Shown in pieces: positions 433 through 44,031 of a stretch of DNA of 64,000 nt; position 1 is the first letter of the stretch; the number at the start of each line of letters is the position of its first letter. The stretch lies in the NCBI GenBank assembly GCA_030429625.1, contig JAUIFA010000001.1, positions 207,868 through 271,867 of the forward strand, read 5' to 3'. The translations under genes were made by a program, and so were the position numbers. Under the pieces are notes generated by a model. The model saw only the letters and a list, made by a program, of their open reading frames with translations. It searched no databases and had not been told where the DNA came from. Origin of the DNA: Alphaproteobacteria bacterium. GTDB taxonomy: Bacteria > Pseudomonadota > Alphaproteobacteria > Rickettsiales > UBA8987.

Positions 433-570
433 TTGGGAATTAGAAGGTTTTTAGATGGGCAAAGAAAGAAAAATTTATTGTTTAAATATAAGTGGGGAAA
501 TGATAAGATGTACACAAGAGCTGAGGTTACGGAAGAATCTTTTGATGTTGCAAGAACAAGGTTATTAAAC

Positions 571-1032
571 ATGTCAGCAGTCGAGGAAAACATAAGCAGT
601 GAAGTGATCAAAATAAGAAGCCGTTTTGGCGAAGTGGCCATTCATCTTGAGAATGCTATCTTTTTTCCCCAAGGGTTGTTGGGATTGCCGGATAACTTGC
701 ATTTTGGCCTCACCGAAATCCCTAAAGAAAATATGGGGCAGTTTAAGTTGTTACAGTGTTTGAACGACCATGACTTGTCTTTTGTGGTATTGCCGTTGGA
801 CATCGACAATATCCTCATTGACAAGGAAGACATTCAGGATTGTTGCCGTCAGGTCAATATTGCGGAAGAAAATCTGGCCATTCTATTGATTATTTCGGTA
901 CAACGTTCACCTGATGGGGTAAGAATTACCGCCAATGTGCGTGCGCCTATTTTAATTGATGTGCAAGACAGAGCTGCCATTCAATTTGTTTTTTCAAATA
1001 GTAAGTATAATATTTGCCATCCAATGGCTTAG
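571..1032 (+). CDS. fliW: Flagellar assembly factor FliW (start could be 508)
   Basis: SRFGEV, IFFPQGLLG, LQCLNDHDLSFVV, TANVRAPILI motifs. Confidence 0.9.
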   Translation: MSAVEENISSEVIKIRSRFGEVAIHLENAIFFPQGLLGLPDNLHFGLTEIPKENMGQFKLLQCLNDHDLSFVVLPLDIDNILIDKEDIQDCCRQVNIAEENLAILLIISVQRSPDGVRITANVRAPILIDVQDRAAIQFVFSNSKYNICHPMA

Positions 1033-1074: not shown

Positions 1075-2247
1075 ATGTCAGAGATAAAGCGATATGCATT
1101 TCTAGACTCATTTTCTTGCATAGGAGCAGAATGTGAGGATACGTGCTGTAAGGGCTGGGGTATGCAGGTGGATCAGGGTACGATCACCCGCTATGAAAAA
1201 GATGCCCCTGAGCTTTTGGAGAGTGTCACATCCGGAGAGGCAGAAAATATCATGAAACGCAACCCTAAGACGGGGTATTGTGTGCGTTTTGACGATGGTT
1301 TATGTTCCATTCACCGTGAAAGGGGCGATGCGTTTCTGGGTGATGCCTGTCACTTTTTCCCTAGAATTACACGTAGAATCGGCGAGGAAGTCATTATGTC
1401 CGCGTCTATTTCCTGCCCTGAGATAGTCCGTATTATTTTAAACAGTGATGCGCCGTTTAAAGTTGAGAACAGGAGCATAGATCGTCAGCCTTATACATTG
1501 AAAAATTATTTACCAGAGGGATTGGAAGAGGGGCATGGTCAGGAAATCATTAGTGCTCTGATGGACATGGTAGAAGAGGCGCCCAACGCTGAGCGTGCCA
1601 TGGCGCGTATTGTTATCATTGCCAAATCATTGGAAACATTTGAGCCAGAAAAATGGCATGAAGTTGTCCCGTTTCTTATCAAAATGGCCGATAGCAGGCT
1701 TCTGCCACCACAAAAGAACCAGAACGACCCCTATTTCTTATTGCAAACATTATGGGCATTGATTCACGCTTCAGGAAACACAAAACGGCCGCGTATGGAA
1801 GAAGTATTTGAACGGATGGAAAAAGCTCTAGGTATGATAATTGATCGCTCTAGCCTCGATATTATGCTTAATGTTGGGCAGGAAGACTATCCACAAATTC
1901 TAAGCAAAAAGTGGGATATTTCTGCGCGGGAGGAAAGTGATAAAATTTTAAAACGTTGGATGCAGGCACAGCTGAGTATGGCAGGATTTCCGTTTGCTGG
2001 CTTTGGCAAAACATTATACGATCGGGCCGTTATCATGGCGGTACGGTTTGCCACCACAAAACTGGCTTTAATGTGTCACATGCAAGAAGATGGAAATAGG
2101 GCAGAGGACGCAGCAGTAGTAAAAATTATACAAACCATTTCACGTTTTATGGATCATCTTGCAGATCCGGAACTTTCCATTAATCTTTACACAGATGCTG
2201 GTTGGATGCACGATGCGCGCTTACGGGCTTTGGTGGGGGACAGTTAG
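1075..2247 (+). CDS. fliB: Flagellin lysine-N-methylase FliB family
   Basis: Cys-rich FSCIGAECEDTCCKGW, GLCSIH, ACHFFPR, SISCPE; flagellar context. Confidence 0.85.
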   Translation: MSEIKRYAFLDSFSCIGAECEDTCCKGWGMQVDQGTITRYEKDAPELLESVTSGEAENIMKRNPKTGYCVRFDDGLCSIHRERGDAFLGDACHFFPRITRRIGEEVIMSASISCPEIVRIILNSDAPFKVENRSIDRQPYTLKNYLPEGLEEGHGQEIISALMDMVEEAPNAERAMARIVIIAKSLETFEPEKWHEVVPFLIKMADSRLLPPQKNQNDPYFLLQTLWALIHASGNTKRPRMEEVFERMEKALGMIIDRSSLDIMLNVGQEDYPQILSKKWDISAREESDKILKRWMQAQLSMAGFPFAGFGKTLYDRAVIMAVRFATTKLALMCHMQEDGNRAEDAAVVKIIQTISRFMDHLADPELSINLYTDAGWMHDARLRALVGDS

Positions 2248-4046
2248 TGGAGAATATTGAGAAAGTTTATGTCCAAGCTACCCAACTTCATGAAAAGGGG
2301 CAGTTGGCTCAGGCCTTTGCTCTGTATAAACAAGTTATTGCGCTTAAGCCAAACCATGCCGACGCGTTGCACCGTATCGGGGTGATTTTTCATCAGAATG
2401 GGCAACATCATCAAGCCGTAGCCTGCATCGGTAAGGCCATTGAAATTGGGCCGGATAAGGCAGAATATCACTGCAATTTAGGCAGTTGCTTTATCCATTT
2501 GCAAAAACCTAAAGAAGCCGAAGGGCAATATAAAATTGCTCTGAGCCTTGATCCCAAAAGTGCCAGTGTCTACCAAAATATGGGTGTGTTGATGCATCAG
2601 CAAGACCGTTATAATGATGAGATTGCCAGTTATGCCAAGGGCAGAAAATTTCATCCCAATAACATCAAACTGCTCAATGAATTGGTCAAAACCAAGAAAG
2701 ATGCCTGCGATTGGGATGAGTTGGACGCGTTGAATAAACAGCTTCAAAAAGAAATCAAGAAGGAAATAAAAACCACCGGAAAAACCACTGCCACCGCCTT
2801 TCATATGCTTTACACATTTGATAGTTTTAAGGACCAGTATTACTTTGCCAAGGCCTATGCTAAGGGTAGGTTTACACCGTTAAAGACACTAAGAGACCAG
2901 TTGGCTTTTTCCTATCATCCTCGTAAAGGAGAAAAAATCCGTATTGGCTATGTTTGTTCGGATTTTGGCAACCATCCTACCGGACATTTGATGCGTACCA
3001 TGTTTGAGCATCACAATCGTGATCGGTTTGAGATTTTTGCCTATTCGTTGAATAAGGACGATGGCAGTGATTATTATAAAAACATTTCGCAAAGTGCAGA
3101 CCATTTTGTGGAGTTATTTGGTATGTCTATTCCGGACAAGGCCAAGCGGATAAATGCGGATAAGATTGATATTTTGCTCGATGTGATGGGCTATATCCAA
3201 AATTCGCAAAGTGAGATCTTTGCTCTCAGGCCTGCCCCGATTCAGGTCAGTTTTCTAGCCTATCCGGGGACGATGGGCGCGGAATTTATTGATTATCTGG
3301 TGACCGATTCGCAGGTGGTGCATCTGGGAGAGGAAAAATATTTCACCGAGAAATTATTAAAGATGCCCGACAGTTATTTTGTCACCGACAATCAGCAAAA
3401 AATATCAGACGATGTGCCGAGCCGGGCAGAATGTGGTTTGCCGGAAGAGGGCTTTGTTTTTGCCTGTTTTAATAAGCCCTATAAAATTACTGCCCAGATG
3501 TTTGATCTTTGGGCACAGATTTTAAAACAAGTGCCAGATTCAGTGCTGTGGTTGTTTAGCAATATAAAAGATTGTGAAGATAATTTAAAGAAAGAGGCAG
3601 AAAAACGTGGTTTTGCGGATCGGTTGGTATTTGCTAAACGGGAAGAAAAATCCCAACATCTGGCACGTCATGCGTTGGCAGATATGTTTTTGGATTGTTT
3701 TGAAATCAATGCTCATACTACGGCCATTGATGCGCTTTGGGCGGGTTTGCCGGTGTTAACCAAGCCGGGGAATTCCATTATTTCCCGTGCTTCGGCAAGC
3801 ATCATCAATGCCATGGGGATGGAAAATTGGGTGGTTACTTCAAATGAGGAATATGTCGAAAAAGCAGTGTATTATGCCACCAATCCAACCAAACTATCTG
3901 CTGAGAAGAAAAAGCTAAAGACGTTAAAAAACAAAACTGCCTTGTTTGATACGGCAAAATACGTTAAATCACTTGAAGAAGGTTTCTTACAAGCGTATGA
4001 ACAATATAAAGAAAGCCAGCCACCAAAGGAGATTAATGTCATATGA
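2247..4046 (+). CDS. TPR-containing GT41 O-GlcNAc transferase (OGT-like)
   Basis: N-terminal TPRs; RIGYVCSDFGNHPTGHLM, PAPIQVSFLAYPGT, FNKPYKI, NAHTTAIDALWAG; GTG start overlaps the fliB stop. Confidence 0.88.
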   Translation: MENIEKVYVQATQLHEKGQLAQAFALYKQVIALKPNHADALHRIGVIFHQNGQHHQAVACIGKAIEIGPDKAEYHCNLGSCFIHLQKPKEAEGQYKIALSLDPKSASVYQNMGVLMHQQDRYNDEIASYAKGRKFHPNNIKLLNELVKTKKDACDWDELDALNKQLQKEIKKEIKTTGKTTATAFHMLYTFDSFKDQYYFAKAYAKGRFTPLKTLRDQLAFSYHPRKGEKIRIGYVCSDFGNHPTGHLMRTMFEHHNRDRFEIFAYSLNKDDGSDYYKNISQSADHFVELFGMSIPDKAKRINADKIDILLDVMGYIQNSQSEIFALRPAPIQVSFLAYPGTMGAEFIDYLVTDSQVVHLGEEKYFTEKLLKMPDSYFVTDNQQKISDDVPSRAECGLPEEGFVFACFNKPYKITAQMFDLWAQILKQVPDSVLWLFSNIKDCEDNLKKEAEKRGFADRLVFAKREEKSQHLARHALADMFLDCFEINAHTTAIDALWAGLPVLTKPGNSIISRASASIINAMGMENWVVTSNEEYVEKAVYYATNPTKLSAEKKKLKTLKNKTALFDTAKYVKSLEEGFLQAYEQYKESQPPKEINVI

Positions 4047-18566: not shown

Positions 18567-18659
18567 ATGGACATAGAATTGAAAAAACAAATTCGCTCAT
18601 GGCTGATTATACTCTTAAGTATGGCCATTGCGTTTGGCTTTGGTATGAGCATAAATTAG
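18567..18659 (+). CDS. Putative 30-aa single-pass membrane protein (not in ORF track)
   Basis: MDIELKKQIRSWLIILLSMAIAFGFGMSIN; TATAAT at 18525-18530. Confidence 0.4.
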   Translation: MDIELKKQIRSWLIILLSMAIAFGFGMSIN

Positions 18660-18725
18660 CATATTTTATTTTGCTATTTATGTTAGTTCTGCTATCCTTG
18701 GATTAAGATAATATTAGGTTTTGCG

Positions 18726-19076: not shown

Positions 19077-19080
19077 CAAA

Positions 19081-19524
19081 TTAATAATTAATTTTCCACC
19101 GTGCGGCCTTGTCGGGTTGAATGGTAAAATCAATAGTGTATTCTTGATTTTTTCCACAAGATTCCAAAAGCCAGCTTTCACTCCAATTTCGTGTGATGTT
19201 CCATGCTCGATTGTCTGATAAGTCTGGCGTCATAGGAGAGTAAATTTTAACGTTCTTGAGGGCATAATTTTCTTTTACAAAGTCACAGTCGGGATAACGT
19301 GTGCTGATCTCATTGATAATGGAATAAAACACATCGGCTTTTGGCAATAGCCCCTCAGATTTATTATACGCATCGGCCAATTTGGAGATTACATCATGGT
19401 AGACTCGGTCACTGTCTTCTTTTGGAGGGATGTGGGCATTTTCATTGTTCCAGACAAGAGAACCACATCCCGCAATGGTAAACAAGGCGGCAATAGACAA
19501 ATAATATTTTAAATGACGAAGCAT
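19081..19524 (-). CDS. Hypothetical lipoprotein
   Basis: Signal peptide with lipobox IAGC; starts 3 bp after the aminomutase stop. Confidence 0.7.
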   Translation of the reverse strand: MLRHLKYYLSIAALFTIAGCGSLVWNNENAHIPPKEDSDRVYHDVISKLADAYNKSEGLLPKADVFYSIINEISTRYPDCDFVKENYALKNVKIYSPMTPDLSDNRAWNITRNWSESWLLESCGKNQEYTIDFTIQPDKAARWKINY

Positions 19525-19527
19525 CTT

Positions 19528-21048: not shown

Positions 21049-21092
21049 ACAACACCTTTGAAAAATCATTACAAATATATTTTCTGTAAAAA

Positions 21093-21230
21093 TTGTGCGC
21101 TGCACAACAAAAATATCCAGCAAAAATCGCTGGATACCAATGTATTTTACAGATGTGCATTATATCTGTTTATTCCACAAAAGCAAGAATAAAAAACGCA
21201 GCAAATCCGCACTCATGTTGCATTGCAGCA
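21093..21230. promoter_or_regulatory. Two PhaR/AniA-type boxes
   Basis: TGCGCTGCACAA (21096-21107, within the palindrome TTGTGC-GCT-GCACAA) and TGCATTGCAGCA (21219-21230). Confidence 0.6.
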
Positions 21231-21295
21231 AATCGAGGTATATTTATTTTTATGTAGATAAAACTATCTTTCGTATAACGAGCTGTTAACAAGGT

Positions 21296-22618
21296 TTATA
21301 GAGATTTTTCTAAGGCGGCCGAAAACTTATTTACGATCTCATCAATGTGCTTATCTTCCATGATAAATGGCGGAGCAAACATCACATGTGCTCCTTGAAC
21401 TCCATCAATTGTTCCGCCCATAGGATAGCACATTAACCCTTCTGCCATGGCTGCTGCTTTGATTGTGGTAGGTAATTTCTTGGCTGGATCGAAAGGTTTT
21501 TTACTGGCCTTGTCTTCTACCAATTCTAAACCGATAAACAAACCACGCCCACGAATGTCACCGATGTTGGGATGTTGGCCAAAAGCATCTTCAAAGGCGG
21601 CATGCAATTTGGCACCTTTATTTTTCACATTTTCCAGCAATCCGTCACGCTGGATAATTTGTTGTACCTTCAGTGCTGTGGCGCAGGCAATCGCATGACC
21701 GATATAGGTGTGACCGTGTTGGAAAAACCCACTACCTTTTTGAATGGTTTCAAAGATATTTTTGGAGACCAACATTGCGCCAATGGGTTGATATCCCGCA
21801 CCAAGCCCCTTGGCAATGGTCATCAGGTCAGGAGCAACGCCATCTTCTTCACAAGCATACATATAGCCGGTTCTGCCCATGCCGCACATCACTTCGTCAA
21901 GAATCATCAACACATCATATTTTGTACAGATTTCACGAATGCGTTTTAAATAACCTTCAACGGCCGGAACGCAGCCGAGCGTTGCTCCCACCACCGGTTC
22001 ACAAATAAAGGCAGCCACTTTTTCTGCACCGATCTCATTGATTTTATCCTCTAACTCGTTGGCTACTCTTTGGCCAAAATCGAATTGCGATTCGCCGTCT
22101 TTTTTCAGGCGATATTCGTAACAAGGTGAAATATGATGCATGTTCACCAACATCGGTTTAAATTGGGCACGGCGCCATTCATTGCCACCGGCAGACAGTG
22201 CGCCCAACGTGTTGCCGTGATAGCTTTGTTTGCGGGCGATGATGACTGACTTTTCGTTTTTGCCTTGTTCTAAGAAATATTGCCTAGCAATTTTTAAAGA
22301 GGCTTCCACTGCTTCCGAACCACCGGAAAAGAAATAGACCCGATCCAATCCTTCTGGCGCGCGTTCAATCAAAAAGTCAGCCAGTTCTTCCATCGGCTCA
22401 TTGGTAAAAAATCCGGTATGAGCAAAGGCCAATGTATCAATCTGTTTCTTCATCGCTTCACGCACTTCTTCATTGCTGTGACCAAGGCAGGAAACCGCAG
22501 CCCCGCAACTTCCATCAAAATAACGTTTATTGTTGCTGTCAATGAGATAGCAACCTTCTCCTGATATAGCGGTAGGGTAGTTGGTTAGAGTATGACGATG
22601 AAAAACATGGTTTGGCAT
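21296..22618 (-). CDS. Class III PLP aminotransferase (omega/beta-amino acid type)
   Basis: DGSCGAAVSCLGH, SGGSEA, SYHGNT, DEVMCGMGRTG, AKGLGAGY, HGHTY. Confidence 0.92.
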   Translation of the reverse strand: MPNHVFHRHTLTNYPTAISGEGCYLIDSNNKRYFDGSCGAAVSCLGHSNEEVREAMKKQIDTLAFAHTGFFTNEPMEELADFLIERAPEGLDRVYFFSGGSEAVEASLKIARQYFLEQGKNEKSVIIARKQSYHGNTLGALSAGGNEWRRAQFKPMLVNMHHISPCYEYRLKKDGESQFDFGQRVANELEDKINEIGAEKVAAFICEPVVGATLGCVPAVEGYLKRIREICTKYDVLMILDEVMCGMGRTGYMYACEEDGVAPDLMTIAKGLGAGYQPIGAMLVSKNIFETIQKGSGFFQHGHTYIGHAIACATALKVQQIIQRDGLLENVKNKGAKLHAAFEDAFGQHPNIGDIRGRGLFIGLELVEDKASKKPFDPAKKLPTTIKAAAMAEGLMCYPMGGTIDGVQGAHVMFAPPFIMEDKHIDEIVNKFSAALEKSL

Positions 22619-23105: not shown

Positions 23106-24641
23106 ATGAACAATCAACAACAAGTGCTAACAATAGATCAGGCAATGGCCAAGGCGGAGGAGTCTAAGAAAGAAAAAAAGCCAATGGTGGCATTACAGAT
23201 CTATAATGATATCCTCAACAAATATCCGCATAACCTTAATGCTCTGTTTAGTCGAGGCATGTTATTAGAAGAAAATAAAGAATATAAGGCCGCGCTTAAA
23301 GATTATAATACATTGATAGATTTGTCTTACGATGTTCATATTGTGTATTCTAAAATGGGTGATTGTTACAGCAAATTAATGGACAATGACATAGCCGTTG
23401 AATGCTATATCAAATCAATGCAATCCAAACCTGATTATGTGAACACTTACGCTCCGGCGGTCAGCTTTATGGAGCGGGTCGGGAGATTAAAGGATGCAGA
23501 AAAACTTGTGGATAATGCGCTGAAGCTTGTTCCCAAAAGCTCTGATCTGCATTTTCTAAAAGGCAAAATTTATCTCAAAGGAAAGGATTATAAAAGAGCA
23601 GAAAAACATTATGCCAAAGCCGTAAATTTTGGGTTATTTGAACGCAGTGCACATATTGTTCTGGCCGAATATTCTTCGGTCAAAGAGAAATTAGGCAAAT
23701 ATGATGAAGCAATGGGGCTGGCGGTTCAGGCACAGAAGTTTGCTTCACAGACAAAAGATGCCTTAAACGCACATACGTCGCCTTTACAAAATACAAAAAT
23801 CATTGAACAATCAATGGGGTGGTTTAGTAAAAAGGACATTAAGGGCTGGGAAAAGGCAGATTATACGGGGAAAAAGGCACCGGTTTTTTTGGTGGGCTTT
23901 CCCCGTTCTGGTACCACATTGATGGAGCAGATACTCTTTGCTCACCATAATTTGACAGTGACTGATGAAGTGCAGGTTCTGCCAGCAAAGATGGTATATA
24001 TTAATAAAGTGTTTGGACGTGAGATCCAGTATCCACAGGATTACGCTACCATCACCCATGAAGAAATTCAAAAATGGCGTGATGAGTATTTTGCCGCCAT
24101 GCAACGCACGTTGCCACACATTGATCACAGCTTACGTATTGTGGATAAAAACCCGATGTCCTTCATTTACATGGGAGCGATCAAGCGCTTTTTCCCTGAA
24201 TCACCGATGTTGATGATGATCCGTGATCCGCGCGATGTGTGTTTAAGCTGTTTCTTCCAAACCTTTGCTCCTAATTCAGACACAGTACATTTCTATGATC
24301 TAAAAGAAACGGCTACCTATTATGCTAAGGCGATGGATCTTTATTTTAAGTTCCGTGACACGATGTCGATGGACATATTGGAAGTCAAATACGAGGATAT
24401 GATTGATGATTTTGAGAACCATGCGCGTAACATCATAAAATTTATTGGTGAAGAATGGGACGATAATGTATTGACCTATTACGAACAAAAAAACAGTCGC
24501 TTTATTAAAACACCAAGTTATGAAGCAGTCAAACAGCCGGTGAACAATAAAGCAGTGGGTCGTTGGCAGAAATATGAAAAATATTTCAAAGAGATTACCC
24601 CTATTCTTCAGCCATATTTAAAAGAATTTGGATATGATTGA
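23106..24641 (+). CDS. TPR + PAPS-dependent sulfotransferase
   Basis: TPRs; VGFPRSGTTL, VDKNP, RDPRDVCLS. Confidence 0.9.
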   Translation: MNNQQQVLTIDQAMAKAEESKKEKKPMVALQIYNDILNKYPHNLNALFSRGMLLEENKEYKAALKDYNTLIDLSYDVHIVYSKMGDCYSKLMDNDIAVECYIKSMQSKPDYVNTYAPAVSFMERVGRLKDAEKLVDNALKLVPKSSDLHFLKGKIYLKGKDYKRAEKHYAKAVNFGLFERSAHIVLAEYSSVKEKLGKYDEAMGLAVQAQKFASQTKDALNAHTSPLQNTKIIEQSMGWFSKKDIKGWEKADYTGKKAPVFLVGFPRSGTTLMEQILFAHHNLTVTDEVQVLPAKMVYINKVFGREIQYPQDYATITHEEIQKWRDEYFAAMQRTLPHIDHSLRIVDKNPMSFIYMGAIKRFFPESPMLMMIRDPRDVCLSCFFQTFAPNSDTVHFYDLKETATYYAKAMDLYFKFRDTMSMDILEVKYEDMIDDFENHARNIIKFIGEEWDDNVLTYYEQKNSRFIKTPSYEAVKQPVNNKAVGRWQKYEKYFKEITPILQPYLKEFGYD

Positions 24642-33354: not shown

Positions 33355-33573
33355 ATGGCGAAAGAAGAATTATTAGAGTTTGAAGGCACGGTGATGGAAA
33401 TTCTCCCTAACGCAATGTTTAGGGTTGAGCTGGAAAACGGACATGAAATTATTGCTCACACTTCCGGACGGATGCGTAAGCACCGTATCCGTATTCTTCT
33501 GGGTGATAAGGTGACGGTCGAAATGACCCCTTACGATTTAACCAAAGGACGTGTGATTCTACGTCACAAATAA
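33355..33573 (+). CDS. infA: Translation initiation factor IF-1
   Basis: [31 protein letters not shown]. Confidence 0.98.
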
Positions 33574-33583
33574 GAGGCTTACT

Positions 33584-34156
33584 GTGATGAAGCTTGTTCT
33601 TGCCTCACAATCCCCTGCACGTTTGCAGCTGTTAAAGAATATTGGCTTTGTTCCCGATGTGGTACAGCCCGCTGATATTGACGAAACCCCATTAAAAAAC
33701 GAAGACCCTAAGCAATATGTGGTGCGTTTGGCAGAAGAAAAAGCCAAAACCGTCCATGTTCAGCACTCAGACGCGTATGTGATTGCAGCGGACAGCATTG
33801 CCTGCTGTGGGAGAAAAATTTTAGGTAAGCCGGAAGACCGTAACCATGCGCGTGAAATATTGCAAATGCTTTCGGGTCGTCGGCACAAATTATACACTGG
33901 CTTATGTGTGATAGCGCCGGACGGCACATTGCGCATTAAATCAGTGTTAACTATGGTAAAATTCAAACGCATTGGCACGCAAGAGATGGAGGACTATCTC
34001 GACACGCAGGAATGGGAGGGTAAATGTGGTGCTTATGGTATACAAAAAGACGCGGGCGCTTTTGTCCACTCGATCAATGGCAGCTATACCAACGTGATTG
34101 GCCTACCGCTGGTGGAAACAAAAAATTTACTATTGGGTCTCGGATTTAAAAAGTAA
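33584..34156 (+). CDS. maf: Maf/YhdE nucleoside triphosphate pyrophosphatase
   Basis: LASQSPAR, LGKP, GKCGAYGIQ, NVIGLP. Confidence 0.93.
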   Translation: MMKLVLASQSPARLQLLKNIGFVPDVVQPADIDETPLKNEDPKQYVVRLAEEKAKTVHVQHSDAYVIAADSIACCGRKILGKPEDRNHAREILQMLSGRRHKLYTGLCVIAPDGTLRIKSVLTMVKFKRIGTQEMEDYLDTQEWEGKCGAYGIQKDAGAFVHSINGSYTNVIGLPLVETKNLLLGLGFKK

Positions 34157-34217: not shown

Positions 34218-35915
34218 ATGAACAGTCTTATTGAAAAAGCGCCGGATTATTCCGGCATTTCTACAAAATTACAGTCAAACAGTCTAAACGAACAAGCAGC
34301 GTTGGAAGAAAAGATAAATCAAACGTTTTTGCTTGCGGTGGATCACCATCAACATATGCGCCTGAAAGAGGCGGAATATTTATACCGCCGGATATTGGAA
34401 ATTCGCCCCAATCTGGTGGAATGTCTGAATAACCTCATCACATTGCTTATTACCAAAGAAGAGGGTACAGATTTGAATGAGTTGGGGCGCATGTGTTTGC
34501 ATGCACTTTCTTTAGAGCCGAACAACGCAAAACTGCACGATAAATTTGCCGCTGCGCTCACCCTTAACGGTCAGCCCGAAGAAGCCGAAAAAGAATATAA
34601 GAAGGCCATTGAGCTTGACCCTAATGACATGAATATTCGTAGCAACTACAGTAAGTTGTTAGGGGAGATTTTAAAGTCGGAAGAAGCCATCAAGCAGATA
34701 GACATTGCCCTGAAGAAGGAGGTGACCCCCAAATTTATTATGAACAAAGGTGTGGCGCTCATTGCCCTTGGGCGGTTGGAGGAAGCAGAAGAATGTTTTC
34801 GGAAGGCCATTGGGCTGGAGCAGTCCAATGCGGAGGCGTGGCGCAACATTACCTCGATCCTAAAATATAAAACCAGTGATAACAAGGATGCTTCAGAAAT
34901 CAGAAAGCTTTTGGAAACAGGGAAATTATCTCCACAACAAAAAGCCTGCCTGTATTTTTCATTGGGCAAGATACATGACGACAGCAAAGAATATGATCAG
35001 GCATTTGAAAATTATAAAAAAGGTAATGAGCTGATTTTTGATAATGCCCAAAAAGGAAACAAGTTTTTTTACGACCGCAAGAGCCATGATGCGTTCTGCA
35101 AAGGGGTCATTAAGGGGTTTGATAAAAAGTTTTGGCAGGAGTTTAAAAAGAGTGGCTATAAGGGCAATGATTCACGCATGCCGATATTTGTGGTGGGAAT
35201 GCCGCGTTCGGGTACGACGCTGACAGAAAAAATCATCGCGCAACATCCGCAGGCATCGGGTGCGGGTGAGCTAACAGAGATGCGCAATACCATAAAATTA
35301 ATGACACCAGCGTTAAATAAGTTTGCTCAAACCGGTCAGCCTTTTAGCGAGGAGGAGCGGCACTATTTTGACCGTTTGGCAGAAAAATATTTGGCGCGTT
35401 TGGGGCGTGATGCGGAAGACGGCGTGGTGCGTGTGGTAGACAAGCTGCCGGGCAATTTCTTGCATCTTGGGCATATTGCTATTTTGTTCCCCAACGCAAA
35501 GATCATTCATTGCAACAGAAACCCCCTCGATACCTGTTTGTCTAACTTTTTTCAGTATTTTGCTTCGGGCATTGGGTTTTCGTTTAATCTTGAGGCAATG
35601 GCGCATTATTATGGGCATTATAAAAGACTTATGGAGCATTATAACCAGTCCGGTCTTCCATTGGAGATTCTGGACGTACATTACGAAGAACTAACTTCGG
35701 ATACAGATACCGGCGTGAAGAAGATTTTGGACTTTATCGGTTTGGATTTTGATGAAAACTGTTTGAAACCGCATGAATCTTCTAGCGGTGCACATACGGC
35801 CAGCGCGTGGCAGATCAAGCAGCCCATTTATAAAACTTCGCAGGAGCGTTGGAAAAGGTACGAGTCGCAGCTTCAGCCATTAATGTCTGCGTTGGAAAAA
35901 GAAGGGGTGCTGTGA
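34218..35915 (+). CDS. TPR + sulfotransferase
   Basis: TPRs; VGMPRSGTTL, DKLPGN, RNPLDTCLS, TASAWQ. Confidence 0.9.
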   Translation: MNSLIEKAPDYSGISTKLQSNSLNEQAALEEKINQTFLLAVDHHQHMRLKEAEYLYRRILEIRPNLVECLNNLITLLITKEEGTDLNELGRMCLHALSLEPNNAKLHDKFAAALTLNGQPEEAEKEYKKAIELDPNDMNIRSNYSKLLGEILKSEEAIKQIDIALKKEVTPKFIMNKGVALIALGRLEEAEECFRKAIGLEQSNAEAWRNITSILKYKTSDNKDASEIRKLLETGKLSPQQKACLYFSLGKIHDDSKEYDQAFENYKKGNELIFDNAQKGNKFFYDRKSHDAFCKGVIKGFDKKFWQEFKKSGYKGNDSRMPIFVVGMPRSGTTLTEKIIAQHPQASGAGELTEMRNTIKLMTPALNKFAQTGQPFSEEERHYFDRLAEKYLARLGRDAEDGVVRVVDKLPGNFLHLGHIAILFPNAKIIHCNRNPLDTCLSNFFQYFASGIGFSFNLEAMAHYYGHYKRLMEHYNQSGLPLEILDVHYEELTSDTDTGVKKILDFIGLDFDENCLKPHESSSGAHTASAWQIKQPIYKTSQERWKRYESQLQPLMSALEKEGVL

Positions 35916-37540
35916 TGAAGAATGGTTTTGGAGGCGGACAGCAAAGTCAGGTGAGTGTGAAAACCAAGGAGCAGGAGGTTGCAGAAGCCTTTGCTGTGGC
36001 ACATAAATATCATCTTTCGGGGGATTTGCAAAAAGCCGAGGCGATCTATCGAAATATTTTTGAGGCAGATCCAAACCATGTCGACACGATCAACAATCTT
36101 TCGGTAATTTTAATTGACCGCAAAGAGTTTAATGATGCGAATTTGCTGCTGGAGCATGGCATGCAAATTGCACCAGACAATCATCGGATTGTTGAGAATT
36201 TTGGCTATAATCTGGCAGCTCAGGGCAGAGAAGAAGCGGCACTGCCCTATTATGAAAAGGCGTTAACGATAGAACCTAAATCCCAGCAAACCTATGTCAT
36301 GTATGGTAAATTATTATATTTGTTGGGGAAATACGATCAGGCGACGGAGCAATATAAGAAAGCGCTAAAGATAAATCCTAAGAATATTGCGGCTATGGAG
36401 AATCTAGCGGCCACCGATTTTGTAATGGGTAATTTTGATGAATCGATAGATTTATATGAGAAAGTCATAGAGTTAAACCCAAAATGTGGGCGATTATATC
36501 GTACCATTACCCAATCTAAGAAGTTCAAATCAGCAGACGACCGTCATGTAAAAATGATAGAGGGCTTTGATATCGATGGCGTGGATGCAGAAAGTCGATC
36601 GCATATCTTTTTTGCTAAAGGAAAAATATACAGTGATCTTAAAGAATACGATAAGTCGTTTGAATATTACAAAAAAGGCAACGATATAAAGCAGAAGCTT
36701 ATTCCCTACGATCAATATAATTTTGACCGTTTCTTTACGCAAGCCAAGGAGCTTTACACCAAAGCATTTTGGGACAACAACAAGTTTTCTGGATCATCTT
36801 CAGAAGTGCCGGTGTTTGTGGTGGGGATGCCACGTTCTGGCACCACATTGACGGAGCAAATCATTGCTCGCCATCCTGATGTGGACGGGGCAGGGGAGCT
36901 GCCGTTTATTACAAGAAATGCTGCGGCAATTGCCAGTTTAATGAAAGATCCAAAAATTACACAGCAAAATGCGGGTGTGATTGTTCCGCCTATTCTAAAG
37001 AAATTTGCTCAGGACTATCTGCACCGACTAACGCTGAATGTAAAAGATAAAAATGTGAAACACGTAGTAGATAAACAGCCCACCAATTTCCAGTATTTAT
37101 CAGAAATTGCGCTGCTTTTTCCTAAGGCTAAGATTGTACATTGTAAGCGCAATGCGTTGGATACGTGTATTTCCAATTACTTCCAATATTTTATTGACGG
37201 TAACACGTTTGCTAATAATCTGGAAAGCTTAGCGCATTATTTTAATGCTTATGAAAATATTATGGAGTTTTATAAAGAGAATTTACCGTTGGAAATATAC
37301 GATCTTGAATATGAAAAATTGACCAGCAGTCCGGAAGAGGAGGCAAGAAAATTGCTTGAGTTCATTGGGTTGGAATTTGACGAAAGATGTATCCATCCCG
37401 AGGAAAGTAAGCGGGCGGCCAGTACGGCCAGCGCGTGGCAGGTCAAGCAGCCCATTTACCAAACATCGCAGCAGCGTTGGCGGCGCTATGAAGAGCATCT
37501 TCAGCCATTAATAAAAGCACTAAATAACCCACCTGTTTGA
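35915..37540 (+). CDS. TPR + sulfotransferase (tandem paralogue)
   Basis: TPRs; VGMPRSGTTL, DKQPTN, RNALDTCIS; TGATG overlap with the previous gene. Confidence 0.9.
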   Translation: MKNGFGGGQQSQVSVKTKEQEVAEAFAVAHKYHLSGDLQKAEAIYRNIFEADPNHVDTINNLSVILIDRKEFNDANLLLEHGMQIAPDNHRIVENFGYNLAAQGREEAALPYYEKALTIEPKSQQTYVMYGKLLYLLGKYDQATEQYKKALKINPKNIAAMENLAATDFVMGNFDESIDLYEKVIELNPKCGRLYRTITQSKKFKSADDRHVKMIEGFDIDGVDAESRSHIFFAKGKIYSDLKEYDKSFEYYKKGNDIKQKLIPYDQYNFDRFFTQAKELYTKAFWDNNKFSGSSSEVPVFVVGMPRSGTTLTEQIIARHPDVDGAGELPFITRNAAAIASLMKDPKITQQNAGVIVPPILKKFAQDYLHRLTLNVKDKNVKHVVDKQPTNFQYLSEIALLFPKAKIVHCKRNALDTCISNYFQYFIDGNTFANNLESLAHYFNAYENIMEFYKENLPLEIYDLEYEKLTSSPEEEARKLLEFIGLEFDERCIHPEESKRAASTASAWQVKQPIYQTSQQRWRRYEEHLQPLIKALNNPPV

Positions 37541-37669
37541 TTCACATAGATTTTTTGTTTGACCGGCCTTTTAAAAAATGCTAGTTTAGTAGAGTGGGCA
37601 AGTAGCCCCTTTAACCGATATGCCTTCTTTGGGGGGTGTATTTCATATAATCCACGTAGGAGAAAAATT

Positions 37670-39916
37670 ATGGTTGGTATTATATCTAACAGTGCGGCGT
37701 TGTTCGCACAGCGGAATCTTGGCGTTGCTGCTGCGGATTCTGAATCTTCAATTGCGAAACTTTCAAGTGGTAATAGAATTATCCGTGCTTCGGATGATGT
37801 TGCGGGCCTAGCGGTCGGTACGTCTTTGGCCACTACGGTTTCCACACTTAAAACGGTACTTGGTACAACAAACCAAGCATCTTCATTGCTTCAGATCGCC
37901 GATGGTGGTTTGAAAAACATTGCAGACATTCTTGCTCGTCAGAAATCACTGGCAGTATCAGCGAACTCCGGTTCACTGTCTGATACTGAACGTGCGTTCC
38001 TACAACAAGAATTTGCTGCTCTATCTACTGAGATTGACCGTATCGTAGATTCTACAGAATTTAACGGTATTAAACTTCTGGACGGTTCTGTGTCTGGTAA
38101 TGCAAATCTGACTACTGCAGAAGGCACGACAACAGAATATTACAGTCTTGATGATAAAACACACTATAGTGTTAATGGTGTGGGTTCAACCGGTACAGTA
38201 GATTCTATTTCTATTCAGGAAGGCGTTACTACTGCGGCGGTTCAAGGTCGTTTCAGCTTTGCGTTAACCATTACCGACAATACGTCTAGTGATGGTTTGT
38301 TCCAGTTCAACAGTGCTGCGGGTACAACCGTATCTGTGACCATTAATAGTGCTAGTGCTGCTACGGAAGCCGGTGATATTGTTGCTGCTCTTAATGCGGT
38401 TAACACTACCACTACTTCAGCAGCCTATGGTTGGCAGTTCTCTATTGAGGGTGCTTCTACCATCGTTGCCGAATATATTGGTAACTCTTTAACAGCCGCA
38501 CAAGTTAACGCTGCAACGGTTGAAATTACTGATGGTGGTACGACTACCATTGATATTAACCTCAACGGCGGCGGTAACCTTGCTAGTGGTGCGACTACGG
38601 CTGTAAACACCAATGCTGGTACGGCTTCTGGTACGCAAGCGGCTGTGGATGCGGTGTATGACAGCACAACTACTGTGTTTAGTTCTACGCTACAGGGTGC
38701 TATCACCAATATTGAGGCTCAGTTTGTTGCTGGTGCTCAAACAGGTGTGGGTACTTATACCAATAACACTGTGATTTTCACAGCTACTATTGGTGGTGTA
38801 AGCTATGTGTCTGATGCGATTGAACTTGCAGGAACTACTTACGTTCAAGCAACCGATACCGTAACATTGGGTACAACATTACTTGATAACACAGTGATTA
38901 ACTTCAGAGCGTCTGGTTCTACTGCAACAACGGCTCAGCATATCCAAATGACCATCAATGGTAATCAAACCATTGCAAGTCAGGCCAATGCAACCACTGT
39001 TGCTTCTACCATTGAATCAGAATTCACGACTGACAGTGTTACTATTTACCAAAGTCGTGAAGTTTCTAGCTTCAGTACAACCGCTATCGTAGGTACTGTG
39101 CTTGATGGTATTACTGCAGATAACGTGTTCTTGAAAGTGGATGATTTCAGTACCACAGGTACTTGGGGTGATATTAGCTCGTTCAATGTAGATCGTGTTG
39201 CGGGCACCATCACTGTTTCTATCAACGGTGTTGAATATCAAACTGACTTGAATGCATTCGGTGGTACTCATGTTGATAATACTTCATTCAACAATGATGC
39301 TGACCTTGTGTTCTCAAGTACGGATACAACGGATGCGCGTACCTTTACGCTTGATCTTGATGGTACAAGTGGTGGTGCTGGTCTGGATTTAACCACTATC
39401 AGCTATGGTACTGCTGCGGAAGAAGCTAATCTTGAAGCGGCATTAAACGCTGCCTTTGGCGTAGGTTCTAGTGAGGCTCTTACCTTCCAAGTAGGCTCTG
39501 ATGCAACAGATACTATTGGTGTATCTATCTCTAGTGCGGCCACAAGCGGTCTGTATGTAGATGCTGACGGTACTGCTGTATCTCTAAGCATTGCCACTGC
39601 GGGTGAAGCTTCATCTGCTAATGGTGGTGACGGTACAGGTTCAATTTTGGCCTCAAACGTTATTGACCGTGCGATCAGTAGTGTAACAAGTCTGCGTGCA
39701 GACGTTGGTGCGTTACAATCTAGGTTTAACTTTGCTGCGTCTAACATCAGTTCTGCAATTCAGAACACCGATGCTGCACGTAGTAGCTTCCTAGATGTGG
39801 ATGTTGCAGAGGAATCTACAACATTTGCAACTGCACAGGTTCGTTTGCAAGCGTCTATTTCAGTGCTTGCACAAGCAAACCAAATTCCACAAAACCTACT
39901 AAAACTTATCGGTTAG
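37670..39916 (+). CDS. fliC: Flagellin, 748 aa, with a large Ser/Thr-rich outer region
   Basis: KLSSGNRI...DDVAGLA, EIDRIVDSTEFNG, RADVGALQSRF, VLAQANQ; AGGAG RBS. Confidence 0.95.
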   Translation: MVGIISNSAALFAQRNLGVAAADSESSIAKLSSGNRIIRASDDVAGLAVGTSLATTVSTLKTVLGTTNQASSLLQIADGGLKNIADILARQKSLAVSANSGSLSDTERAFLQQEFAALSTEIDRIVDSTEFNGIKLLDGSVSGNANLTTAEGTTTEYYSLDDKTHYSVNGVGSTGTVDSISIQEGVTTAAVQGRFSFALTITDNTSSDGLFQFNSAAGTTVSVTINSASAATEAGDIVAALNAVNTTTTSAAYGWQFSIEGASTIVAEYIGNSLTAAQVNAATVEITDGGTTTIDINLNGGGNLASGATTAVNTNAGTASGTQAAVDAVYDSTTTVFSSTLQGAITNIEAQFVAGAQTGVGTYTNNTVIFTATIGGVSYVSDAIELAGTTYVQATDTVTLGTTLLDNTVINFRASGSTATTAQHIQMTINGNQTIASQANATTVASTIESEFTTDSVTIYQSREVSSFSTTAIVGTVLDGITADNVFLKVDDFSTTGTWGDISSFNVDRVAGTITVSINGVEYQTDLNAFGGTHVDNTSFNNDADLVFSSTDTTDARTFTLDLDGTSGGAGLDLTTISYGTAAEEANLEAALNAAFGVGSSEALTFQVGSDATDTIGVSISSAATSGLYVDADGTAVSLSIATAGEASSANGGDGTGSILASNVIDRAISSVTSLRADVGALQSRFNFAASNISSAIQNTDAARSSFLDVDVAEESTTFATAQVRLQASISVLAQANQIPQNLLKLIG

Positions 39917-40031: not shown

Positions 40032-40433
40032 ATGGAAAACTTTTCATTACCCAATACGGCACAGGCTTCACAGGCTTCGCAGGCTTCACAAACAGCGGCT
40101 GCGGCTCCAAGAACAGAAGTTCAGCATGCGGAAATTCAAGCGCAGAGAATTGTAAGCACAAAAGAAGCTGAGCAAACTCCATTGGATGCTCGTGACCAAG
40201 ATCAGGCGCGTTTTGATGCGGTTAAAAAGGCAGCTAAAAGAGTGGTTTCAACCAACCCGCTTTCGCCTAGTTCTGCGCGCTTTACGATTTATCGTGACAC
40301 AAATGTGTCGGGTGTGGTGTACGTAACACGTTTTACTAACATTTTTGATGGTAAGGTAACTTTAGTGCGTGATGAGCAGCTCTTAGCAGACTTTGCCAAA
40401 GAGCAAGGTACAATTCTTGATGGGGTTGTATAA
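40032..40433 (+). CDS. FlaG-like protein
   Basis: Located between fliC and fliD; low-complexity N-terminus; C-terminal GTILD. Confidence 0.5.
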   Translation: MENFSLPNTAQASQASQASQTAAAAPRTEVQHAEIQAQRIVSTKEAEQTPLDARDQDQARFDAVKKAAKRVVSTNPLSPSSARFTIYRDTNVSGVVYVTRFTNIFDGKVTLVRDEQLLADFAKEQGTILDGVV

Positions 40434-40526: not shown

Positions 40527-43502
40527 ATGACAATTAATTTAGGGAGCATAGTGAATCTCAATGGTCGCTCCGTTGGTAGTGGGATATCGTCAGGGCTTGA
40601 CACTGAAGCTATCATTAATGCCTTAACTGAGGCAAGAAGAGCGCCGGCCGCACGTCTTGAAGACACAATCGAACTTAATCAGTCAAGAATCACGGCTTTT
40701 TCTTCTCTAAAAACCATTGTTGAAGGTTTGCGTTCCGCGGCAGATTTTTTACGTGCGCCGCCAGGCTTTAACAATGCATCTGATAATATTTTTATGTATC
40801 GGACAAGTTCTCTTTCTTCCAGCCTGAGTTCTATCTCTAACTATCTCGGGGTAACAGCTTCAGCAGGCGCTGGTATTGGTGATTATGATATTGAAATTGG
40901 TCAGGTGGCGCTAAACCGTCAACAAAGAACCGGCTCTTTTTCTAGTCAATCTTCGGATATTGTCGATGATGCAACAGGGGCAATTACTTCATTAGATTTC
41001 GGAGAAAATGAGCCAGTTGTAGACGATACTATCACCATTGGCGGTGCAACTTACACATTTGTGGAAAATGGAACAGACAGTGATGGAACCAGCATCGAAC
41101 TGGGAACAACATTAACAGAAACCTTGGCCAATATTAAATCCCATCTTTCCAGTACTAATGGGCAAGCCGTCCATGCGGATGTGGATAATTTTACCTATAG
41201 TGTTTCAGGCACGTCGATCATTGCCACCTCTAAAACAGTGGGTGGGGCAGACGATGCTATTGATTTTTCAGCTTCCATTGCGGCGGGTGCACCAACAGTA
41301 GGGGACACAGCAGGTTCATACGGCAACAGTGCGGGCATGTTTTCGGCTGGAATATTTCAATTTGCTTCTACCCTGGCGGTAGATGTTGCCTCTACCACAG
41401 ACACAAGTATTAATCTCACTTCATCGGACTATACCGTTAATGGTGCGGTGGGAAGCTCTGTCTTGTCAACGGGTATTTCCAACATCACCGTTGATGGGGA
41501 TGAACCTAATGGGTATAAAGGGTTACTAAGAACGATCACAGGTATTTCTGGTTCGTATGATGTGGATGCGGACACATTAACGCTTTCGGTTAGCATTAAC
41601 GGCAGAACATTTACATCCAATGAAATTAGTACCGCAGCCGGAGCAGGTAGTGATAGTATTGCCGCTGGGCAGACTATTACGTTTACGGACGGAGACGAAA
41701 CTTCGGCTACCAGCTTTGATGTGGTAGTCGGTGCAGAATATTTGATTGATGATACGGTAGAAAATGCGGACGCATTTGTGACTTCACTGGAAGCGGATTT
41801 GGCCTCACAAACTATTCTTCAGGATCGCGCGCTTTCCAATGTAAACACAGACAATATTCCACCGGCATCACCTCTTTATGGATTGACCTCCTCGGATGTG
41901 ATATACAGAACTGGGGATTATTCAAGCATTGGCCTAGCAGGAGACATCTCTGGATTTACCGTCACACGCAACGGCTCAAACGATACGGATATTTCTGTAA
42001 CAATAAACGATGAAGTGTTCACTGTCACAGGGCTTAGCGATACGTTAAATGGTAATATTACCCTTACAGGAAGTAACGGTGAGCAGCTCTCTCTTAATTT
42101 GGGAGATGCTGGTGTATCTTTTGATATTGCTGATGATGCAGCTGCGACGGAGCTTCAGAACGCATTGGATTTTGCTTTTGGCACAAAAAGCCTGACCCAC
42201 ATAGAAATAGAAAATGACTTTACGTTAGTAGATATCGCTGCGGCAATCAATGCGCAATCCTCTGCAAGCGGAGTTTCTGCTAGCATCGTGCAAGTCAGTG
42301 ATACGGATTTCCGTTTGACTTTGCAGGCTACGGATGTGGGTTTGGACAACTCTTATGAGATTGTTGATTATAACCAAGTGTGGCATGCTGGCACAGGCGA
42401 TGGCAGTGATGGGGTAGAAATGATCGCCGTACAATCTGCTCAAGATTCTTTCATCAGTGTTAATGGTATCGTGGTACAGAGGTCTTCAAATTCTATTGAT
42501 GACGTTATTGATAACATTACGTTTAGTATTCATGAGGTTACCGGTTCAGCGTTTACCAGCCAGTCTACCTATGATGCGTTAGGATCTCACACAGAGATTG
42601 TGGCGACCATTGCCAATGATACTGAAACAGTTGAATCTGCGGTTGTTAATTTTATCAATGCGTATAATGAATTTAGGGTGTTTGCAGCAACACAAACATT
42701 CCGTGATGCACAGGGTAATTTAGGGGAAGATGCGGTATTGGGCGATAACACGACCTTATCGACCTTAATCAATCAAATTTCAGGTGAAGTTTCCTCTGCT
42801 ATCAGCGGTGTATCTGACTCAGACTTTGCTACGTTAGGCGCTATTGGTATTACTTTGACGGATTATGATGGCGATGATGAAAATCCAGAGGTAAGCAATA
42901 TCCTAACCTATGACCCAGATAAGCTGTCTGCGGCATTGGCAAATAATTACGATGAGGTTCGTGAAATTTTTGAAATGTCCTTTTCTGCTAGCTCCAGTAA
43001 CTTGGCACTGTATGAAAGTAACAATAGTGCTACATTAACAGACTATCAGATAGACATTGACACGAGTCGTGAATCGGGTGATGAAGTGCGTATCTTGGAT
43101 TCAGATGGTGACTTCTTGTTCAATGCAACCCTCTCCAGTCTTGGTGGCAGTTATTATATTAGTGGGGATAGTGGAACAACACTTTCAGGGCTTGGCTTTA
43201 TCTATACCGGCGATGGAGATGATGTTATCACGGTTGGGTCGTCCTACGGTATTGCTGATCGTCTTTACAATATCATGGATGATTATGCTGAAGATGATGG
43301 TGTGATTGATACGACCGTAGCAGATATTGTGGATGAAAATGAAGACCTGGAGGTTGAAGTCACGGATATTGACTATGCGGTGGATCAGTATCGTCTACAA
43401 CTCATTGATCAATATACAGCACTTGAATCGGCTATCACTCAGGTCAATACGTTGCTGCAATTTATCGAATCACAGGCGAATTTGGCCGCGTCGGGTAACT
43501 AA
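40527..43502 (+). CDS. fliD: Flagellar filament cap FliD, 991 aa with large insertions
   Basis: GISSGLDTEAIINAL, SSNSIDDVI, VNFINAYN, LGAIGIT, QYTALE. Confidence 0.92.
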   Translation: MTINLGSIVNLNGRSVGSGISSGLDTEAIINALTEARRAPAARLEDTIELNQSRITAFSSLKTIVEGLRSAADFLRAPPGFNNASDNIFMYRTSSLSSSLSSISNYLGVTASAGAGIGDYDIEIGQVALNRQQRTGSFSSQSSDIVDDATGAITSLDFGENEPVVDDTITIGGATYTFVENGTDSDGTSIELGTTLTETLANIKSHLSSTNGQAVHADVDNFTYSVSGTSIIATSKTVGGADDAIDFSASIAAGAPTVGDTAGSYGNSAGMFSAGIFQFASTLAVDVASTTDTSINLTSSDYTVNGAVGSSVLSTGISNITVDGDEPNGYKGLLRTITGISGSYDVDADTLTLSVSINGRTFTSNEISTAAGAGSDSIAAGQTITFTDGDETSATSFDVVVGAEYLIDDTVENADAFVTSLEADLASQTILQDRALSNVNTDNIPPASPLYGLTSSDVIYRTGDYSSIGLAGDISGFTVTRNGSNDTDISVTINDEVFTVTGLSDTLNGNITLTGSNGEQLSLNLGDAGVSFDIADDAAATELQNALDFAFGTKSLTHIEIENDFTLVDIAAAINAQSSASGVSASIVQVSDTDFRLTLQATDVGLDNSYEIVDYNQVWHAGTGDGSDGVEMIAVQSAQDSFISVNGIVVQRSSNSIDDVIDNITFSIHEVTGSAFTSQSTYDALGSHTEIVATIANDTETVESAVVNFINAYNEFRVFAATQTFRDAQGNLGEDAVLGDNTTLSTLINQISGEVSSAISGVSDSDFATLGAIGITLTDYDGDDENPEVSNILTYDPDKLSAALANNYDEVREIFEMSFSASSSNLALYESNNSATLTDYQIDIDTSRESGDEVRILDSDGDFLFNATLSSLGGSYYISGDSGTTLSGLGFIYTGDGDDVITVGSSYGIADRLYNIMDDYAEDDGVIDTTVADIVDENEDLEVEVTDIDYAVDQYRLQLIDQYTALESAITQVNTLLQFIESQANLAASGN

Positions 43503-43527: not shown

Positions 43528-44031
43528 ATGACGTATGATAAACAGTGTCAAGCATACACAAATAACAGCCACATGGTGCGTAAAACCAAGCAGGTTGTGA
43601 TGTTGTATGAGGGCGCGATACGTTTTCTACAACAAGCAAAAGCCGCAATAGAAGAGCAAAGAATAGAAGACCGTTTTAATATGCTGACCAAGGCATCGGA
43701 TGTGGTCACGGGTCTTCAGTTGAGTTTGGATAAGGAAAATGGTGGGGATATTGCCAACCTTCTGGATGATTATTATTCAGGTCTAGACATGCGCATTATG
43801 TCACTGCATCAGAGTAATGACCTGACCATGCTGGATATGTGTGTGCGTCATCTGAAAATGATGAAAGAAGCATGGGAAGAAATAGACCATAATCATGAAG
43901 AGGACGATGCTGGGTCGTTTAATGATTATGTTACTGTGGGTGAGAAAAATGATTCTGAGATTGATATGTCGGATCCTGAAGTTTCCCAGAAAATAATGAG
44001 TGTGGCAGACAGTATTAATGTCAGAGCCTAG
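43528..44031 (+). CDS. fliS: Flagellin chaperone FliS
   Basis: VMLYEGAIRFL, L.LSLD..NGGDIANLL..YY, AWEEI. Confidence 0.92.
   Translation: MTYDKQCQAYTNNSHMVRKTKQVVMLYEGAIRFLQQAKAAIEEQRIEDRFNMLTKASDVVTGLQLSLDKENGGDIANLLDDYYSGLDMRIMSLHQSNDLTMLDMCVRHLKMMKEAWEEIDHNHEEDDAGSFNDYVTVGEKNDSEIDMSDPEVSQKIMSVADSINVRA

Follow-up and report, generated by a model that had tools for sequence, protein, structure and literature searches.

Tandem TPR-sulfotransferase genes directly upstream of flagellin in a Rickettsiales bacterium: a possible route to sulfated flagella

Two tandem genes for tetratricopeptide repeat (TPR) sulfotransferases, here named ST1 and ST2, stand immediately before the flagellin gene fliC in a 64,000-nucleotide stretch of the genome of an alphaproteobacterium of the order Rickettsiales (contig C5:207868-271867). 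This whole stretch, alphaproteobacterial by its gene-family matches, is referred to as the window, and the genome – 1.84 Mb in size and 99.7% complete – is coded G000 among the genomes compared. A previous sequence-only reading of the window had taken the arrangement to indicate that the flagellar filament might be sulfated. The features central to that idea are:

34218..35915, plus strand: ST1, TPR-sulfotransferase, 565 aa (PF13469 and TPR)
35915..37540, plus strand: ST2, TPR-sulfotransferase, 541 aa (PF13469 and TPR)
37596..37662, plus strand: fliC leader with two conserved hairpin-like motifs
37670..39916, plus strand: flagellin FliC, 748 aa, 26% Ser+Thr, 13 Tyr; proposed substrate

The two sulfotransferases

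ST1 and ST2 are genuine, intact TPR-sulfotransferase genes. Both open reading frames (ORFs) encode N-terminal TPRs, with matches to TPR families, followed by a Sulfotransfer_3 domain (PF13469; E 5e-42 and 2e-41), which scores 145 and 143 bits against a curated cut-off of 27. The genes are coupled, as had been read from the DNA – the stop TGA of ST1 (35913-35915) overlaps the ATG of ST2 (35915) – and the pair lies directly upstream of flagellin, with 129 bp between the end of ST2 and the fliC ATG (37670). The motifs GMPRSGTT, GEL, DK(L/Q)P, RxxxDTCxS, YE and TASA, the PAPS-binding ones of which had been described earlier as intact, are present in both proteins, and in ST1 several of them map to these positions:

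35196, plus strand: GMPRSGTT
35265, plus strand: GEL
35439, plus strand: DKLP
35517, plus strand: RNPLDTCLS
35796, plus strand: TASA

We take PRSGTT to be the 5'-phosphosulfate loop and R...S the 3'-phosphate motif; ST1 and ST2 have both. At ~40% identity the two are mutual closest relatives (tree support 100/99), and they share architecture and motifs with what NCBI names the 'Tetratricopeptide repeat-containing sulfotransferase family protein' (PF13469 and TPR). Within this family ST1 and ST2 have no close relatives apart from each other, the best matches lying at 29-39% and none above 39%. The family is large – ST1 matches no fewer than 12,663 clusters at E 1e-30, TPR-driven matches included – and no characterised member was found in the open-access literature. 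Tandem copies are common in it: of 78 loci outside the order, 16 carry at least two enzymes. Joint action of such copies is hinted at by the 61 of the 143 best-scoring ST1 matches that contain at least two sulfotransferase units, although ranking by score inflates this share. The genome itself holds five TPR-sulfotransferases among ten PF13469 matches. One of these, ST3 at 23106, had been counted as a third copy of the pair; it is only ~29% identical to the pair in the catalytic domain and ~66% identical to a paralogue at C5:412609, and both identity and tree place it in a distant subfamily.

In sequence, ST2 comes closest among solved structures to human TPST1/2 (E 5e-11), with SULT1A (2e-5) and CurM behind. 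The AF2 (AlphaFold2) model of ST2 (pLDDT 94.5) has a predicted TPST-like fold: TPST1 and tick TPST rank top at Z 22.3 (for TPST1, a root-mean-square deviation of 2.8 over 242 aligned residues), an olefin-synthase (polyketide) sulfotransferase follows at Z 17.0, and Foldseek agrees. In an alignment to TPST1, R307, E328 and K387 of ST2 coincide with the TPST catalytic Arg78, Glu99 and Lys158, residues that PMC10951654 describes as required for TPST2 activity. A crude hydropathy scan picks out no signal or membrane segment in either protein (highest 19-residue values 1.16 and 0.79), and ST1 and ST2 are therefore probably cytoplasmic, in the compartment where 3'-phosphoadenosine-5'-phosphosulfate (PAPS) and unexported flagellin reside. 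A predicted complex between the TPR region of ST2 (12-290) and FliC (40-748) scored 0.00, which is informative neither way.

In base composition the pair shows no trace of recent transfer (GC content 0.44 and 0.41). As to promoters, sigma-70-like sites occur at chance level (14 versus 15.9 expected), no sigma-54 or sigma-28 pattern was found before ST1 or fliC, and the genome has no FliA above the cut-off.

The flagellar setting and its recurrence across the order

The window contains two flagellar blocks 30 kb apart, flgK-flgL-fliW-fliB-GT41 at its start and ST1-ST2-fliC-(flaG)-fliD-fliS, and thus shows modifying enzymes among flagellin genes – as do the compared genomes G018, G056 and G033 – in the manner of flagellin modification islands:

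433..1032, plus strand: fliW, after flgK-flgL, which extend into the window start
1075..2247, plus strand: FliB flagellin lysine methylase (NF038110, above cut-off)
2202..4046, plus strand: TPR-GT41, O-GlcNAc-transferase-like (PF13844)
23106..24641, plus strand: ST3, TPR-sulfotransferase of another subfamily, 511 aa, 12.9 kb from fliC
33355..34156, plus strand: infA and maf, co-directional with ST1, with a 61 bp gap before it
33584..34156, plus strand: maf, nucleotide pyrophosphatase (PF02545/TIGR00172)
40032..40433, plus strand: 133 aa ORF in flaG position, without a Pfam match; homologues lie between fliC and fliD in relatives, whence the putative name
40527..43502, plus strand: filament-capping protein FliD (991 aa; 10 Tyr in acidic context), perhaps a second substrate
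43528..44031, plus strand: flagellin chaperone FliS

FliC is the sole full flagellin found in the genome, and the TPR-GT41 its sole GT41, with fly and human OGT as top PDB matches (E 8e-83) and XcOGT at 7e-73. The ORF before maf is presumably infA, the gene for IF-1. The maf gene is not the flagellin glycosyltransferase of that name: it is a pyrophosphatase and lacks a MAF_flag10/DUF115 domain. Since maf also lies near fliC in the relatives G001, G004 and G017, the ST1/ST2 pair looks like a lineage-specific addition inserted between maf and fliC.

Linkage was examined in 401 genomes of the order, which were searched for PF13469 and flagellin, with DNA fetched around long matches. The resulting table holds 78 TPR-sulfotransferases in 41 genomes; as it takes up the best candidates for PF13469, at most seven per genome, the enzyme totals are lower bounds. 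A TPR-sulfotransferase stands beside fliC in eight of these 41 genomes – G000 (two enzymes), G018, G056, G033, G040, G073 (two), G122 (divergent) and G153 – which represent six families and five to six enzyme lineages, against 0.19 expected by chance (computed with one gene per kb and rounded sizes). In seven of the eight the enzyme is co-directional with fliC and directly upstream of it. Sulfotransferases that are not of the TPR type gave no case within 50 kb of a flagellin among 50 matches in a 61-genome sample. The fliC-adjacent enzymes do not form one orthologous clade (p-AU 2e-108), so that the slot beside fliC was taken repeatedly, by separate enzyme lineages; on the tree, adjacency takes six changes, with five to six in bootstraps and three forced by starred branches. 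The trees omit four rows of the linkage table without a motif match, ORFs without a motif match and six truncated or long-branch rows, and those used for the monophyly test and the change count hold 67 rows, with L181 omitted as well.

Gene order in relatives gives this adjacency a flagellar context. In G056 it runs flgK-flgL-fliW-fliB-GT41-TPR.X-GT41-ST-fliC-fliD-fliS, and G018 is similar, with a FliB-GT41 fusion and two methyltransferases; in both, the two blocks of the window form one cluster with the sulfotransferase last before fliC, and the cluster also contains TPR-GT41s and a TPR protein whose tail is SGNH-like by eye, without a Pfam match. The order in G033 is flgL-fliW-fliB-ST-fliC. 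The sequence-only reading's picture of three chemistries acting on one filament thus finds its predicted clustering in two relatives, where FliB, GT41 and sulfotransferase share a flagellin cluster; counting G033, fliB and an adjacent sulfotransferase share a cluster in three genomes. A metagenome lineage (L181, L172) has the enzyme in a flaF-type flagellar operon, fliK-flgD-flgE-ST-flagellin-flaF.

The fusion in G018 (L010:3718-6798) joins a FliB lysine methylase and a TPR-GT41 in one ORF of 1027 aa. A search for longer FliB fusions scored none, and it was insensitive, since it did not score this one either.

Synteny with fliC, as the earlier reading framed it, holds in one sense and fails in another: the link recurs well above chance, and it is not conserved, since neither the 17 remaining family genomes nor the nearest paralogues show it. 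The PAPS supply that it presupposed is encoded in full, with cysD and a fused cysNC on contig C8 (305-309 kb). This putative cysD is one of two genes of the PAPS-reductase family in the genome, the other being a putative cysH, and sulfite reductase is encoded as well. Across the order, adenosine 5'-phosphosulfate (APS) kinase occurs in 35 of the 41 TPR-sulfotransferase genomes versus 94 of the 360 others.

The leader of fliC carries a feature of its own: a stem-AAGTA-stem motif at 37596-37608 and a CCACGTAGGAG motif over the ribosome site at 37652-37662. Compared leaders (the window plus L010-L013, L041, L048, L065, L071 and L077-L089) share a double hairpin-like element: all 22 have CCANGTAGGAG across the ribosome site, and 19 of the 22 also have, further upstream, an ANGTA loop whose stem covaries; the double element occurs once in the genome. 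We take it to resemble CsrA sites with a changed loop, the canonical loop presumably being ANGGA. The genome has csrA and fliW, and the element may be a CsrA–FliW switch with altered RNA specificity.

Acceptor, mechanism and rival explanations

The acidic tyrosine contexts quoted in the sequence-only reading exist: TEYYSLDD in FliC (38132-38155), and TDYDGDDE (42858-42881) and DDYAEDD (43278-43298) in FliD. As an argument for tyrosine sulfation they fail for FliC. FliD is mildly enriched (10 sites versus 5.3, P=0.028), whereas FliC, with two sites versus 0.8 in 2000 shuffles (P=0.19), is not above shuffled expectation. Acidic-context tyrosines are present in 75% of 753 ORFs of at least 300 aa from the same genome. 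The ten sites of this FliD are the highest number among 20 FliDs compared; those of genomes without a TPR-sulfotransferase have one to five, and those of other genomes with an intact adjacent enzyme none or one. In three of the four other genomes with an intact adjacent enzyme, the flagellin has no such site.

The sugar added by the GT41, which had been mentioned as an alternative acceptor, fits the comparative data better. A GT41 is found in seven of the eight fliC-adjacent genomes (including G153, whose copy contains stops) versus eight of the 33 other TPR-sulfotransferase genomes (Fisher p 0.002, with kin not independent); within the family, a strong GT41 match occurs only in G000; and three of the 143 best-scoring ST1 matches are sulfotransferase–GT41 fusion proteins. 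Because FliC is rich in Ser and Thr (26%, not unusual among the flagellins compared), the GT41 is OGT-like, and the two enzymes co-occur and are at times fused, the GT41-added sugar would probably be the sulfate acceptor, with direct tyrosine sulfation second. Since G122 (99% complete) lacks a GT41 match although its adjacent enzyme is intact, a single acceptor may not fit all cases. No dedicated nucleotide-sugar synthesis genes were seen among the 59 window ORFs scanned, and the donor for an OGT-like enzyme may be a housekeeping one.

We propose that ST1 and ST2, expressed along with the flagellum, would act in the cytoplasm, their TPR arms likely docking on unexported flagellin, in analogy to the arms of FlmG and Maf-1. 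Flagellin would first receive an O-linked sugar on Ser or Thr from the OGT-like GT41, and ST1 and ST2 would then move sulfate from PAPS to flagellin, most likely onto that sugar. We give even odds to cytoplasmic sulfation of flagellin, and consider it a toss-up whether the filament is sulfated; that flagellin or FliD carries the sulfate is put at the same evenly balanced level. Within that last figure, the sugar as the site of sulfation is a tentative choice, and direct attachment to Tyr, Ser or Thr an unlikely one. FliB methylase, TPR-GT41, TPR-methyltransferase, TPR-SGNH-like protein and TPR-sulfotransferase appear to be interchangeable parts of a flagellin-decoration island, which in G000 is split into two pieces 30 kb apart.

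A number of observations weigh against this proposal. Besides the failure of the acidic-tyrosine argument for FliC and the lack of a GT41 match in G122, APS kinase was not found in G033, which has an intact adjacent enzyme in a genome 91% complete, and the enzymes of three of the eight fliC-adjacent genomes have altered active sites. None of the 17 other family genomes has a TPR-sulfotransferase beside fliC and two carry one elsewhere (ten other fliC loci were read, the remaining genomes having no TPR-type match). The nearest paralogues on the tree (G312, G017, G146, G159 and one on the genome's own contig C11; weak support, 95/75) are not beside fliC; the one in G159 is separated from fliS by 3.2 kb containing unrelated genes. 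Adjacency is absent from 33 of the 41 TPR-sulfotransferase genomes, though for ~10 of the 78 genes the fetched DNA stops within 1.5 kb on the downstream side. None of the 78 loci outside the order adjoins flagellin; one has fliW and a flagellin-like match 6-7 kb away, and some of the hosts are Pelagibacteraceae, presumably non-flagellated. Five of these 78 loci have a GT41 beside the TPR-sulfotransferase with no flagellin in view, and the pairing is therefore not flagellum-specific. Within the order, large Gly/Ser/Thr/Asp/Asn-rich proteins are encoded no more than 3 kb from nine of 63 loci, against 4.8% expected from the genome itself. The large exported-type neighbours are autotransporters in G030, G045 and G090, RTX proteins in G000, G222 and G105, and a TPS protein in G054. 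G090 (98% complete) has TPR-sulfotransferases and GT41 and no flagellin match. Given such neighbours and such a genome, the family would seem to modify exported proteins in general, flagellin being one client that recurs.

These neighbours also feed the strongest rival, that the sulfate goes from the pair onto other molecules, exported or at the surface – RTX proteins, autotransporter-type proteins or envelope glycans – and that the slot before fliC is a variable site for surface-modifying genes. The genome's own paralogue at C5:412609 sits between RTX-repeat genes, a TPR.X-ST-GT41-methyltransferase set adjoins an autotransporter in G030, the genes upstream of fliC vary widely across the bacterial family (including cysNC in G003), and the size of the family, even with its TPR-driven matches, points the same way, as do G090 and the nearest paralogues unlinked to fliC. 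The eight adjacent genomes where 0.19 were expected, the co-directional upstream position in seven of them, the placement of the gene inside a run of flagellar genes in G018, G056, G033 and L181, and the absence of non-TPR sulfotransferases from the slot all argue the other way, and we hold this rival possible and on the doubtful side. Direct tyrosine sulfation of FliC or FliD in the manner of TPST or RaxST is a sub-case of the flagellin proposal. TPST1/2 are the best matches in sequence and fold, RaxST offers a precedent for bacterial protein-tyrosine sulfation (PMC4892823), FliD has its ten sites, and G122 pairs an intact enzyme with no GT41. It is nonetheless improbable: FliC is not enriched, most other intact-enzyme flagellins lack a site and their FliDs have almost none, and the acceptor does not follow from a shared fold, as a polyketide sulfotransferase also scores Z 17.

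Lastly, the flagellar role could be non-catalytic or involve another chemistry, the TPR arm serving as a flagellin chaperone or regulator and the sulfotransferase domain as a nucleotide-binding module. The enzymes of G018 and G056 have PR[ST]GKT, DT replacing DK and no TAS loop, the G153 copy is degenerate, and the L181 enzyme is of the GKT type. These altered sites leave room for such a role; they do not directly concern ST1 and ST2, which, like the copies of G033, G040, G073 and G122, keep all motifs. The G153 locus may in any case be decaying (split flagellin, stops in the GT41, no APS kinase match). The Walker-A-like variant GxxxxGKT occurs at L010:11847-13499, L011:11212-12738 and L168-L183, with Thr for the catalytic-position Lys in 18 of 18 domains read; a scan for GKT gave 16 metagenome matches, all TPR-sulfotransferase-family domains and all with the DK lysine changed to Thr (16 of 16, by eye), which suggests a compensatory lysine swap, with a change of nucleotide use possible too. 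A GKT subfamily specific to flagellin is rejected, since only two of the 16 matches, from one lineage, are flagellin-linked. We regard a non-catalytic role as the remotest of these alternatives.

Returning to the flagellin proposal, its widest form – bacterial flagella sulfated before export by TPR-docked, TPST-like enzymes, probably as sulfo-O-GlcNAc, within a family that provides a general cytoplasmic sulfation route for exported proteins (flagellin, autotransporters, RTX), was recruited many times and includes a natural lysine-swapped variant – stands at slightly less than an even chance. If true, it would add a new flagellar chemistry that could alter filament charge, phage binding and host recognition, and would supply the first substrate for a family of thousands of TPR-sulfotransferases. 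The locus is a compact test case: a single flagellin and a single GT41, together with both sulfotransferases intact and a full PAPS gene set, all of which could be expressed in a laboratory strain.

Several further arrangements were seen along the way. A module of TPR-sulfotransferase, IalB, TPR-sulfotransferase and a large autotransporter-type gene recurs (L016 and L031, from G002 and G090; L018 from G030; L022 from G045), the G030 set consisting of TPR.X, TPR-sulfotransferase, TPR-GT41 and methyltransferase; adhesins are candidate substrates of the autotransporter-linked enzymes. Contig C220 of G187 (L056, 1-12541) is 12.5 kb of eight tandem TPR-sulfotransferases and nothing else, with two more at another contig end (L061), and no end overlap joins it to a flagellin contig. 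In G003, a member of the family that gave no PF13469 match, cysNC lies directly upstream of fliC (L086:5651-7642). In the window, genes for a KamA-family radical SAM enzyme, a class III aminotransferase and a beta-keto acid cleavage enzyme cluster at 15901-22618, just upstream of ST3, and a P4-type integrase at 60401-61621, near the window end, is likely the edge of a mobile element. Residues 155-268 of FliD (40527-43502) resemble part of a 1056 aa ORF at C5:204214-207384 (42% identity, E 5e-16), which precedes flgL and by position would be FlgK.

Comparison with known systems

Bacterial flagellins are known to be decorated by glycosylation and lysine methylation. No report of a sulfated bacterial flagellin was found in the open-access literature, supplements aside; the passages of PMC3542563 concern O-chain clusters. 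The nearest parallel in a motility filament comes from Halobacterium salinarum, whose archaellins carry sulfated N-glycans and whose filaments bundle when the sulfated sugars are lost (PMC11239922). That system shares with our proposal a motility filament bearing sulfated sugars; it differs in being an archaeal, type IV pilus-like filament modified through an N-linked lipid-carrier pathway, and its archaellins are unrelated to bacterial flagellin.

For bacterial protein sulfation the reference case is RaxST of Xanthomonas oryzae, compared here by description only: according to PMC4892823, it is a PAPS-dependent protein-tyrosine sulfotransferase homologous to TPSTs that acts on export-bound proteins. 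In these respects it resembles what is proposed for ST1 and ST2; unlike them, its substrates are RaxX and Omp1X, and the same paper describes flagella-dependent motility as unaffected in the mutant.

The closest likeness in the catalytic domain is to TPST1, TPST2 and tick TPST (PDB 5wri, 3ap3, 8w5z), which are the best match in sequence and fold and whose catalytic Arg, Glu and Lys align with those of ST2. Identity is only ~21%, and ST1 and ST2 have a TPR array where TPSTs have an N-terminal membrane anchor. ST1 and ST2 are probably cytoplasmic; TPSTs are Golgi membrane enzymes without TPRs.

In overall design the pair recalls FlmG of Caulobacter crescentus (PMC7591256) and Maf-1 of Shewanella oneidensis (bioRxiv 10.1101/2023.12.03.569772), whose TPR domains bind flagellin. 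All share a two-domain design, cytoplasmic in FlmG and Maf-1 and probably so in the pair, in which a TPR array, selecting flagellin in FlmG and Maf-1, is joined to a catalytic domain, and FlmG (596 aa) and the pair have in common that the array is N-terminal on a soluble enzyme. Where FlmG and Maf-1 have glycosyltransferase domains for pseudaminic or legionaminic acid – a C-terminal GT-B domain in FlmG – ST1 and ST2 carry a PAPS-dependent sulfotransferase domain. Judged by sequence and predicted fold, then, ST1 and ST2 would be TPST-like in their working and belong to neither the TPST nor the FlmG family.

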